Source of the DNA: a virus | Strand: one strand, 5' to 3' | Virus record (IMG/VR): IMGVR_UViG_3300045988_060580 | DNA: 56,154 bases | Shown: piece by piece, positions 49,747 through 51,919 of the stretch | How the letters are laid out: every line of letters starts with the position of its first letter | Numbering within the stretch: position 1 is the first letter of the stretch | Notes under the pieces: generated by a model | Told to the model about the DNA's origin: nothing | The model's input: the letters and a program-made list of their open reading frames with translations, nothing else | Databases searched by the model: none | Made by a program: the position numbers and the translations under genes

Positions 49747-50590
49747 CTAAAAACCAAAGAAAGGAACAGGTTGTGCGCACATAAAACCGAGGTTTCCTTT
49801 TGGCAGATTTATGAATTTTGACAATTATTCTTGTGATAATCAAATGTCTATATTTGACTTCACAAGAGAACCAATTAGCATTACAAAGCCTATCCGCTTG
49901 ATAGAATTATTCGCCGGCTACGGAAGTCAGGCAATGGCACTAAAGAGAATAGGTGCTAAATTTGAGCATTACAGAGTTGTGGAGTTTGATAAGTATGCCA
50001 TAGCAAGCTATAACGCAGTGCATGGCACAGATTTTCCTACAATGGATATAACTAAGGTTCATGCAGAAGATTTGAATATCTGCGACACAGATGCATTCAC
50101 TTACTTACTTACTTACTCGTTTCCATGCACCGATTTATCAGTTGCCGGAAAACAAGCCGGAATGTCTAAGGGCAGCGGCACAAGAAGCGGTCTGTTGTGG
50201 GAAGTTGAGAGAATACTAACAGAAATTAGAGATAGCAACGGAGAATTACCACAGATTTTGTTCATGGAGAATGTGCCACAAGTGCATAGTCAGGATAATA
50301 TGCCCGACTTTAGAAAGTGGCTAGTTTTCCTTGAAAGCCTTGGTTACACAAATTACTATCAAGACTTGAATGCTAAAAATTATGGTGTAGCACAAAATCG
50401 TGAAAGGTGTTTTATGTTTTCATTCCTGGGTGAGTACAATTACCATTTTCCACAGCCTATACCACTCAAAAAGAAGTTGAAAGACTATCTTGAGGATAAT
50501 GTAGATGAAAAGTATTACATCAACAATGAAAAGGCTGACAAGCTGATAAAACAGCTTATTGACAACGGCACATTGCCACAACACAATCTT

Positions 50591-50637
50591 GACAGACAGA
50601 CAGACAGACAGACAGACAGACAGACAGACAGACAGAC
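50591..50637 (+). repeat. (GACA)11 tetranucleotide repeat inside the methyltransferase (encodes DRQT x4)
   Basis: 47 nt of perfect GACA periodicity. Confidence 0.95.
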
Positions 50638-50927
50638 TTGCGTTGACGGAACAATCAATAAGCCGCAGCAAAGAGAAGTTGCAAACTGCATCAAGGCAAG
50701 ATGTGACTGCGGAATATCAAACTTGCGGTCAGACGGAAACTTGGTTGTTAAAGGATATGGGAGAGACGGCAGACAAACAGATTGATGTAGCCGTAACTCT
50801 TAGGGCAAGAGATTATAAAGGCCTTGATAATTATGGAAGCAATGGAGTGATTGAATGGAAAAATTAACAGACGCTATCGGAATAGTGCTTTTTGAAAGTG
50901 AAAAATTCGGTGGCGAAAAGGTACTTA

Positions 50928-50935
50928 GGGGGGGG
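50928..50935 (+). repeat. G8 homopolymer in a methyltransferase TRD
   Basis: Currently in frame (LRGGICPTL). Confidence 0.95.
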
Positions 50936-51054
50936 ATTTGTCCTACCCTAAGAGCCAATAAAACAAGTAGCGGAGTGATTGAAGTAATGGCAGATGTAAA
51001 TGTAATAGGCTCTCTTGAAGCAAAATTCGAGAGTACCAACAGAATTTATGATGT

Positions 51055-51062
51055 GGGGGGGG
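51055..51062 (+). repeat. G8 homopolymer at the frame 2 to frame 0 junction of the methyltransferase
   Basis: G7 or G10 would join NRIYDVGG to CSPTLSTMQGG. Confidence 0.95.
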
Positions 51063-51727
51063 TGCAGTCCAACATTGAGTACAATGCAAGGTGGCAATCA
51101 AGAGCCGAAAATTCTTGAAGAGCAAATTCCATGCAAATTAGATAAAATGCCTAACGGACACTTAGAAAGCTTAGATAATGCGAAAATATGTGACATTAAT
51201 ACACCTACTGCAAGCACAGTGACATCACAATATTATAAAGGCATAGGCAGTCATAAAGACAATATGTGCATAGTTGCTATGCGTGGCAGAAATCCTGATA
51301 ATCCGTCAGATAGAACTGCGGGAAGTCTAACAGAGCAGAGATTAGAGGTGAATATGCAAGGTACAAGTAATTGCTTAACGAGTGTGCAGAAAGATAATTT
51401 ATTGCTTGAAAATAATATCCAAAAAGTCGGTCAAATATCAAGCAACGGTTCCCAATGTGGCACAGTTATTTCTGATAATGGCATATCCGCTAATCTTGTA
51501 GCTGGCACACACGGATATGCAAATAGCCATATTGCTACGCAATATCGTATAAGAAAGCTAACACCGAGAGAGTGTGGACGGCTGATGGGTGTATCTGATG
51601 AAGATATTGACAAAATGGCAGCAATAAACAGTAATACGCAGTTGTATAAGCAATTTGGAAACAGTATTGTGGTAGATGTTATGTGTGCTATGTTTAAGAA
51701 TTTAAACATCAATCAAGGAGATACAGT

Positions 51728-51919
51728 ATGAAAGACGAAACAAAGCAGGAAATACAGATTTTACTTGACCTACTCAAAGGCAGTCTTACAAGAAATGGTG
51801 TAAGTATGGCAACTGACAGAGAGGGCAACTTGATGTTCTTTGATACAACAACTTACATCAAGAGTAAAGGCAAGGAATTTGACGGATTCAGAATTAACAT
51901 TAACGATTTAGTGAAGTAA
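51728..51919 (+). CDS. Hypothetical protein
   Basis: ORF with ATGA overlap. Confidence 0.5.
   Translation: MKDETKQEIQILLDLLKGSLTRNGVSMATDREGNLMFFDTTTYIKSKGKEFDGFRININDLVK

Follow-up and report, generated by a model that had tools for sequence, protein, structure and literature searches.

The virus record IMGVR_UViG_3300045988_060580, a stretch of 56,154 nucleotides (nt) that we call the window throughout, encodes at 49811-51731 a predicted orphan cytosine-5 (C5) DNA methyltransferase. We read this locus as a phage-borne contingency locus, in which a split C5 enzyme with multiple target-recognition domains (TRDs), encoded by two co-transcribed genes, would be switched by simple-sequence repeats (SSRs), and we put the probability of this reading at roughly 0.68. 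It is carried by repeat tracts whose lengths differ among relatives with otherwise identical flanks, by a two-gene layout that these relatives conserve, and by selection acting on two consecutive recognition modules, TRD1 and TRD2, in two different reading frames 3′ of a (GACA)n tract.

The locus comprises four open reading frames (ORFs), all on the + strand and lying in two alternating frames (49811-50785, 50559-50867, 50855-51118 and 51015-51731). PF00145 matches the first of them with an E-value of 6e-48 (profile positions 2-255) and the last with an E-value of 7e-11 (positions 219-322), and TIGR00675, which likewise matches both parts, gives the N-terminal one 140 bits against a cut-off of 100.65; NF045953, the NCBIfam 'N-terminal subunit' model, matches only weakly (25 bits, cut-off 93). 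Motifs I (LFAGYGSQ), IV (SFPC), VI (ENVPQV) and VIII (QNRERCF) follow one another in order in the N part, and the best relative of solved structure is M.MpeI (PDB 4dkj), to which TRD7 and motifs IX-X can be aligned. The features of the locus are given below, where N and C denote the upstream and downstream genes or subunits, and alpha, beta and gamma the three reading phases 3′ of the GACA tract, alpha being that of the window copy.

49811..50785, + strand: N-subunit gene, 324 amino acids (aa) in the window copy, with motifs I-VIII, a (DRQT)4 linker, TRD1 and a TGA end
49907-30, + strand: motif I, N subunit
50099..50117, + strand: (ACTT)4.75, immediately 5′ of the catalytic FPC (motif IV)
50117-40, + strand: motif IV (FPC), N subunit
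50267-84, + strand: motif VI (ENV), N subunit
50393-413, + strand: motif VIII (QNRER), N subunit
50591..50637, + strand: (GACA)11.75, that is (GACA)11 plus GAC, at the boundary between catalytic core and TRD array
50637..50867, + strand: beta-frame extension, with a stop-free linker over TRD1 (50637-50768), TRD2 (ADKQIDVAVTLRARDYKGLDNYGSNGVIEWKN, 50769-50864) and a TAA
50639..50752, + strand: TRD1 (CVDGTINKPQQREVANCIKARCDCGISNLRSDGNLVVK) in the alpha frame, followed by a variable 10-aa tail and a TGA, to 50785
50837-55 and 50965-83, + strand: direct repeat AAGyArYGGAGTGATTGAA, at the ends of TRD2 and TRD3 (..GVIE)
50844..50867, + strand: gene boundary, with GGAG, a 7-nt spacer, the C-gene ATG at 50855 and the overlapping TAA (50865-67) of the beta ORF
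50855..51118, + strand: 5′ part of the C gene, 87 aa in the window copy, with TRD3 (GGICPTLRAN...GVIEV); it ends early because poly-G #2 is G8
50928..50935, + strand: poly-G #1, G8, in frame, encoding GG before the ICPTL of TRD3
51048..51731, + strand: 3′ part of the C gene (frame open from 51015), with TRD4-TRD7 and motifs IX and X
51055..51062, + strand: poly-G #2, G8, out of frame, encoding GG before the CSPTL of TRD4; G7 would join the two parts
within the 3′ part of the C gene, + strand: TRD4 (CSPTLSTMQGG), TRD5 (TSQYYKG) and TRD6 (AMRGRNPDN...SNCLTSVQKDN)
51429-51533, + strand: TRD7 (GISANLVAGTHGYANSHI), a seventh TRD-like block
51552-90, + strand: motif IX (RKLTPRECGRLMG), C-terminal to the variable region
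51651-74, + strand: motif X (QFGNSIVV), C-terminal to the variable region

Relatives of the locus were collected from IMG/VR, 462 for the N ORF and 266 for the C ORF. Genes were compared over a set of 90 unique gene sequences and tract phases over 165 unique tract contexts, and the frame in relatives was anchored on the first codon 3′ of the tract (TGC of CVDG...), which could be done for 78 of them. Near-identical pairs were picked by comparing 995-nt flanks; an ungapped 3.3-kb flank comparison for near-identical genome pairs was dropped, having returned only duplicate loci of the same contigs.

An earlier account of this DNA, made from the letters alone and called the sequence-only reading here, had placed a (GACA)11 tract at 50591-50637, and (GACA)11 plus GAC is indeed what stands there. 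A 16-nt GACA pattern would be expected 0.04 times and is observed at 9 overlapping positions. The tract contains no stop in any frame, encodes DRQT repeats and fixes the reading phase up to 50867. The same account had pointed to a comparison of orthologues as a check on the conservation of the tracts; in more than 150 related gut-phage contigs they occupy the same sites with identical flanks, at 3-23 GACA units and with poly-G lengths of 6-10. Among relatives with 0 differences in the 995-nt flanks, the GACA tract measures 47 nt in L001, 43 nt in L027 and L028, and 63 nt in L084, and other near-identical relatives have 23 versus 19 nt (L016 and L126) or 67 versus 63 nt (L026 and L029). Pairs with fewer than five flank differences share the tract length in 15% of cases and the phase in 38%, which is about the random third. 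The length of the GACA tract far outpaces point substitution, since pairs with no flank difference at all already differ in length.

The reading phase set by the tract is alpha in 68, beta in 59 and gamma in 38 of the 165 unique contexts (chi-square p 0.013, the sequences being non-independent). At the GACA site, (CAGAG)3-13, (GACATACA)n or interrupted versions are found in other lineages, and a relative from a ruminant metagenome-assembled genome (MAG), 62% identical, has (GAACAGA)12 there. Across lineages the repeat unit at this site is therefore 4, 5, 7 or 8 nt long and never a multiple of 3, so that every unit shifts the frame; the CAGAG repeats, like those of GACA, are stop-free in every frame. 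Length differences without substitution in flanks of about 1 kb, the commonness of all three phases and the 5-, 7- and 8-nt units found elsewhere thus agree with the sequence-only reading, which had also seen a contingency locus here.

A number of sequences break off in the tract itself. Eight of 80 IMG/VR loci end inside it (L031, L033, L036, L042, L045, L049, L073 and L076), as do 12 of 72 gut-metagenome stretches (L311, L352, L353, L358, L364 and others), at least 5 of which are true contig ends, and two MAG contigs terminate in the equivalent CAGAG or GAACAGA tract. Two metagenome contigs were each recovered twice in the scan, and both entries of each have the same tract length.

The two modules that follow the tract were examined by the ratio of nonsynonymous to synonymous polymorphism (pN/pS) over 19 unique sequences of identical layout. 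For TRD1, pN/pS is 0.26 in the alpha frame versus 1.12 and 0.83 in the other frames, and for TRD2 it is 0.23 in the beta frame versus 0.72 and 1.60 in the others; the codon-position counts agree with these ratios for both TRD1 (alpha) and TRD2 (beta). Judged by these substitution patterns, TRD1 and TRD2 are each under purifying selection, and only in their own frame. The alpha tail after TRD1 is unconstrained, with a pN/pS of about 0.8 in either frame, and the degenerate GACA-like linker that the sequence-only reading had picked out at 50761-82, within this freely varying tail, is not conserved. TRD1 itself is found in 88 of the 90 relatives, and a TRD1-like module stands in frame within the TRD array of Dulem virus 39 and forms the C-terminus of the N subunit in phage Javan179.

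The layout 3′ of the tract is constant in 78 of 78 anchored relatives, with an alpha ORF followed by a beta ORF and then by a long ORF. The alpha ORF comprises 40-48 codons, contains TRD1 and is terminated by a stop; the beta ORF, in the +1 frame, comprises 57-100 codons, is open across TRD1, holds TRD2 and ends in ...NGVIEWK(N/Y) before its stop; and the long third ORF returns to the alpha frame, with an ATG that overlaps the beta-ORF stop. TRD2 lacks a conserved start codon of its own, and its only route to translation is as an extension of the N ORF in the beta phase, for which the beta frame has to be open across TRD1. This openness holds in all 78 anchored relatives, and its chance is 0.018 given the TRD1 peptide and the codon usage of the phage, the corresponding value for the third frame being 0.00015. 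Only a GACA tract with one unit fewer or two units more than in the window copy gives access to the beta extension, and it had been noted from the letters that the loss of one unit would put the N ORF in the frame containing TLRARDYKG. The accompanying suggestion that the tract might select which TRD is in frame is supported, as TRD1 and TRD2 occupy different frames, with purifying selection acting on each in its own, and as the second frame is stop-free across TRD1. The GACA phase probably sets the end of the N subunit, which would be TRD1 in alpha, the linker plus TRD2 in beta, and an immediate truncation in gamma.

Uninterrupted enzymes that use the beta reading and TRD2 occur as well, namely in L043, L157 and L146. 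The L043 enzyme is a single ORF of 597 aa that has lost TRD3, by a deletion between the GVIE direct repeats, as well as an intact poly-G #2, and in which TRD2 is fused to the post-TRD3 sequence; L157 has no tract, and in L146 the beta frame continues to the gene end. Since the L043 deletion falls exactly between the two copies of the direct repeat listed above, joining TRD2 to the sequence after TRD3, this repeat is likely a site of recombination between modules.

Between the N and C genes, about all relatives retain the GGAG and the ATG, and every one of them has a stop, either TAA, TAG or TGA at a slightly varying position, whereas the A5 at 50859-63 is often absent. The sequence of the boundary varies (GAATGGAAAAATTAA, GAATGGAAGTAATAG, GAATGGAAGTATTAG and others) while the ATG and the stop are kept. 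Because GGAG, ATG and a stop are conserved and the A5 is not, the frame change at the A5 is a gene boundary with a stop/start overlap. The sequence-only reading had counted this A5 among the repeat tracts and had held that three frame changes, all of them at repeats, were required for a full-length protein. Neither view can be kept, as runs of at least six A occur 40 times in the window, the A5 is unchanged or absent in relatives (GAATGGAAGTAATAG, for example), and what stands at this point is a conserved stop/start overlap with a GGAG ribosome-binding site of its own. The locus does not encode a single polypeptide in nearly all relatives, the N and C genes being parted by the stop/ATG boundary, and the enzyme is predicted from this arrangement to be naturally split into an N subunit with motifs I-VIII and a C subunit with the TRD array and motifs IX-X. 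An M.AquI-type split had been offered earlier as an alternative to the contingency locus, with decayed TRDs lying between the two parts. A two-gene split is indeed conserved, whereas the TRDs in between are conserved and shuffled modules; the split is thus also true, and it complements the contingency locus instead of excluding it.

Other ways of crossing or rearranging this region were considered and rejected. A programmed −1 frameshift site at the boundary lacks a conserved slippery heptamer and has no Rfam match, no Rfam RNA element being found anywhere in the locus. Suppression of the TAA by a phage tRNA with a TTA anticodon was discarded as a conserved mechanism, as a TAG follows five codons on, relatives use TAA, TAG or TGA, and the window gives no indication that TAA is recoded. 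No terminator was found between the two genes. Switching of the invertase or shufflon type was likewise dropped, there being no substantial inverted repeats in the locus.

A comparable split occurs in Streptococcus phage Javan179 (MK448694, L176), whose C5 methyltransferase is likewise divided into N and C genes with a TRD1-like C-terminus of the N subunit. Between these genes, at about 1590-1700, ATG-CAA-CAA is followed by A7, and A8 would join the frame of the C subunit; this A7 may mark another homopolymer-gated C subunit. In Dulem virus 39, on the other hand, the enzyme is a single 528-aa chain that contains no SSR and carries about five TRD modules in tandem, including a TRD1-like one; such a chain is likely the ancestral form.

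Within the C gene, the two G8 runs are the only runs of at least six G or C in the 56,154-nt window, in agreement with the earlier remark that G8 occurs nowhere else in it. Over both strands, chance alone would produce 0.74 occurrences of G7, and the count observed was reached in 3 of 100 shuffles. The flanks of both tracts are constant (ggtacttaGn-atttg for poly-G #1 and tatgatgtGn-tgcagtcc for poly-G #2), with n ranging over 6-10 and 6-9, respectively, and the lengths differ among relatives that are identical over about 390 nt. The commonest state is G8/G7, which leaves the C ORF intact: in L001, L035, L037 and L069, all of them G8/G7, the C ORF continues from the boundary ATG to motif X. 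The prediction that G7 at 51055..51062 would give NRIYDVGGCSPTLSTMQGG is sound, as was the ORF frame layout described from the sequence. Of the 109 relatives in which the C ORF was scored, 38 have it complete. Directly 5′ of poly-G #2 stands an ATGATG (51048-53), whose frame matches that of the downstream part in the G8 state only.

TRD modules are present or absent independently of one another, with more than 40 combinations among the 90 genes, and the seven blocks each have a core of the T(L/V/I) type. The four tracts noted from the letters were all located, although the A5 proved not to be a repeat tract, and the list had missed the seventh TRD-like block (GISANLVAGTHGYANSHI) and the (ACTT)4.75 at 50099-50117. 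The latter is the only perfect tetranucleotide array of the window besides GACA, and it lies in the same gene. It is 19 nt long in 57 of the 90 unique relatives, 15 nt in L106 and L158, and 11 nt in L147, and the N ORF is broken at this tract in exactly these three, which have lost one or two units. A change by one ACTT unit would abolish the whole N subunit.

The window copy itself is in the alpha/G8/G8 state, which gives an N subunit with TRD1 and a C gene that is interrupted after TRD3 by a stop at 51118, the part with motifs IX-X having no canonical start. Its enzyme probably has little or no activity, except if the ATGATG at 51048 serves as a translation start.

Taken together, we propose that four hypermutable simple-sequence tracts would alter their length by slipped-strand mispairing at replication, and that such switching would be reversible within a clone. 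The (ACTT)n tract before the catalytic cysteine would act as a rare switch for the whole enzyme. The (GACA)n tract would serve as a three-way selector, appending TRD1 in alpha or TRD2 by way of the stop-free linker in beta, and truncating the N subunit in gamma, whereas the two poly-G tracts, each immediately 5′ of a (C/S)PTL core, would gate the C gene through TRD3 into TRD4-7 and motifs IX-X. By analogy with M.AquI and with fragment complementation, the N and C subunits would be expected to assemble non-covalently. If each TRD has a distinct specificity, the cytosine motifs that are methylated would be expected to differ stochastically among the members of a phage or lysogen population, and the benefit may lie in hedging between two kinds of host, those with restriction enzymes that methylation blocks and those with Type IV enzymes directed at methylated DNA. 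More tentatively, and with rather less confidence than in the contingency locus as such, the locus could be seen as a combinatorial, phage-borne generator of epigenetic diversity, in which a repeat picks between two modules in different frames, the TRD1 DNA doubles as a linker, and the poly-G tracts add or remove modules. One prophage lineage would then keep yielding progeny of several cytosine-methylation specificities, as a bet-hedging device against methylation-sensitive and methylation-dependent restriction in gut Lachnospiraceae, and in lysogens the locus would perhaps amount to a phage-borne phasevarion.

Several points weigh against this proposal. The variation is seen between assemblies only, and the differences could in principle have built up slowly. 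The phase counts and chi-square values overstate the evidence, as the relatives are phylogenetically non-independent. The contig ends in the GACA tract may reflect a repeat longer than the assembler k-mer, or else length heterogeneity within a sample. The C gene is interrupted in about two thirds of the relatives (71 of 109) as well as in the window, so that many copies would lack activity if translation did not also begin at internal starts. The proposal further presumes that a TRD placed at the C-terminal end of the N subunit could cooperate with motifs IX-X supplied by a separate chain. Finally, among pairwise comparisons of the seven TRD-like blocks, which are short and divergent, no pair is significant against shuffling controls (best z 3.7), and the label 'TRD' consequently rests on the motif pattern and on the modular presence and absence.

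The alternative that deserves most attention, unlikely as we consider it, is a stable split methyltransferase in which the repeats are merely tolerated low-complexity linkers, the tail after GACA is dispensable, and length and phase drift neutrally. The catalytic core is indeed untouched by the GACA phase, the C gene has a GGAG and an ATG of its own, fragments of such enzymes cut in the proximal variable region function without overlap (PMC3404938), the phases are near uniform and the alpha tail after TRD1 is unconstrained. Dispensable tails would not, however, be expected to show purifying selection on TRD1 and TRD2, each in its own frame, or a beta frame kept open across TRD1 (p 0.018); the units at the GACA site are of 4, 5, 7 or 8 nt and never a multiple of 3, gamma is under-represented (38/165), and the poly-G and ACTT tracts, which break essential parts, are left unexplained. 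Decay of a once-intact multi-TRD enzyme by frameshifts at mutation-prone tracts would account for a window copy that cannot yield a single-chain enzyme, for the C ORF being broken in 71 of 109 relatives and for the existence of an intact single-ORF relative. We nevertheless regard a decaying pseudogene as quite improbable, given that more than 150 contigs, at 81-99% identity, agree in ORF layout, in the boundary and in the position of the tracts, that the TRDs have a pN/pS of about 0.25 when read in their own frames, that the window copy has no disabling mutation outside the tracts, and that different repeat units arose at the same site.

We attach equally little weight to a bridging of the frames at the level of expression, by which programmed ribosomal frameshifting or transcriptional slippage at the A5 or the poly-G tracts would make a fused enzyme. 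It is generally known that G8 or G9 is long enough for some polymerase slippage, and the stop/ATG overlap at 50855-67 does contain GAAAAAT; yet the A5 and GAAAAAT are missing from many relatives that keep the boundary, there is no Rfam element in the region, tract length differences are abundant at the DNA level, and GACA repeats, again as a matter of general knowledge, are not slippery for ribosomes. Least probable of all, to the point of being nearly dismissed, is that the tract lengths and frame breaks are artefacts of sequencing or assembly. Homopolymers and tandem repeats are error-prone, and several contigs end inside the GACA tract, but tracts of 19-47 nt, which are below read lengths and common k-mers, differ in clean 4-nt steps, so that assembly error does not explain the variation. 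In addition, the pattern repeats across independent IMG/VR, ENA and GTDB MAG assemblies, no other gene of the window has such tracts, and the gene boundary does not lie at a repeat. We therefore keep the repeat-switched split enzyme as the best explanation of the locus.

The window represents a temperate, siphovirus-like phage of Lachnospiraceae from the human gut, with a large terminase, portal, major head protein, tape measure, endolysin and integrase. The methyltransferase lies within its replication and recombination module, near RecT, YopX, a DnaD-like loader and a G39P-like loader, and the gene-neighbourhood annotation of the window shows no restriction gene adjoining it. Long contigs of Lachnospiraceae, Roseburia and Clostridia MAGs contain relatives as insertions of prophage size, and relatives also occur in many human-gut metagenome assemblies. 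A megablast search returned no near match to the locus among GenBank phages, and the closest deposited enzyme is that of Dulem virus 39, with 71% identity over the core.

Some further observations concern the surroundings of the gene. Directly upstream of the methyltransferase, 48899-49746 holds two small ORFs, one of 86 aa that is Cys-rich and one of 196 aa that belongs to PHROG 19106 (unknown function) and looks GIY-YIG-like by eye, without a Pfam match. In some relatives, about 4 kb upstream of the methyltransferase, a 382-aa PAPS-reductase-like gene has a second repeat, (ACAG)n, in the middle of its ORF (L038, 926-963; L158, 831-863); this gene is absent from the 56,154-nt window. Downstream, tandem repeats at 52282-52442 (a 12-nt unit in 8.3 copies and a 9-nt unit in 6.2 copies) lie within the DnaD-like replication gene 51949-52758 and may be origin iterons. 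A tRNA cluster at 10042-10675 comprises tRNA-Gln(TTG), tRNA-Ser(GCT) and a tRNA with the anticodon TTA (10604-10675), which would decode UAA. Nothing in the window points to recoding of TAA: 20 of 41 large ORFs end in it, more than in any other stop, and ORFs become barely longer when it is not counted as a stop. Just 3′ of the cluster, at 11169-11241, there is a 15-nt tandem repeat (AATTAAATACTAATG, 4.9 copies).

If the contingency locus is confirmed, methylation phase variation would extend beyond the restriction systems of the pathogens themselves to temperate phages of abundant gut commensals. The design would be that of a repeat at a domain boundary which selects recognition modules in different frames of a split enzyme, and it would offer one phage lineage a route to meet hosts that differ in their restriction and anti-methylation defences. 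Gene callers will report such loci as fragments or pseudogenes; about 10-15% of the examined contigs end at the tract, and the annotation of this gene is probably wrong in hundreds of gut phage genomes. With its shuffled TRD modules on a split C5 scaffold, the family also amounts to a natural library on which tools for targeted methylation could draw.

In the literature searched, no prior description of this combination of tracts, split and TRDs was found, only bacterial systems and the poly-G tracts of Campylobacter phages. The multispecific C5 enzymes of Bacillus phages studied by Trautner and co-workers (M.SPRI, M.Phi3TI, M.Rho11sI and M.H2I) are reportedly single chains with fixed frames and no repeat tracts. 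They share with the present enzyme its status as an orphan C5 methyltransferase of a phage, the arrangement of one core with tandem short TRDs between motifs VIII and IX, the exchange of modules, and a presumed role in self-protection against restriction. Here, in contrast, there are two genes and up to seven TRD-like modules, two of which lie in different frames behind a tetranucleotide repeat, with two more preceded by poly-G. Enzymes of this multispecific kind from Bacillus phages are the subject of EMBO J 1996 15:1434 (Trautner and co-workers), as cited in PMC12707154.

The split has a precedent in M.AquI, a two-subunit C5 methyltransferase, and fragments of M.BspRI, M.HhaI and M.SssI cut in the proximal variable region complement each other (PMC3404938). 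As in M.AquI, the division falls in the variable region, the N part having motifs I-VIII and the proximal segment and the C part the distal segment and motifs IX-X. M.AquI differs in having a single specificity and no repeats, whereas three readings of the N-gene 3′ end and a homopolymer-gated TRD array are found here. In Campylobacter phages, hypermutable poly-G tracts occur in receptor-binding genes (Sorensen et al. 2021, Cell Rep 35:109214, as cited in PMC12823448), which is likewise a phage contingency locus in which poly-G drives phenotypic diversity in the population. As cited there, those tracts affect receptor-binding proteins and not DNA modification, with no tetranucleotide tract or frame-selected domains.

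Phase-variable methyltransferases and phasevarions are known from Type III mod and Type I hsd genes with SSRs inside the ORF (PMC5909438, PMC7383803). Common to both cases are an in-ORF SSR whose unit is not a multiple of 3, lengths that vary among near-identical genomes, and a predicted on/off methylation. The known examples are, however, chromosomal N6-adenine enzymes of bacterial pathogens, usually with one on/off tract, whereas the present one is a phage C5 enzyme of a gut-commensal prophage with four tracts, one of them mid-gene at a domain boundary. In the NgoAV Type I adenine system of Neisseria gonorrhoeae, a poly-G tract of hsdS1 gives a truncated or a fused HsdS with a differing target (PMC9577141). 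There too, the SSR alters specificity and not merely expression, one phase truncating the protein and another fusing it to the next ORF; what sets the phage locus apart from NgoAV is that its two recognition modules are encoded consecutively in two frames after a tetranucleotide repeat, in a C5 enzyme.

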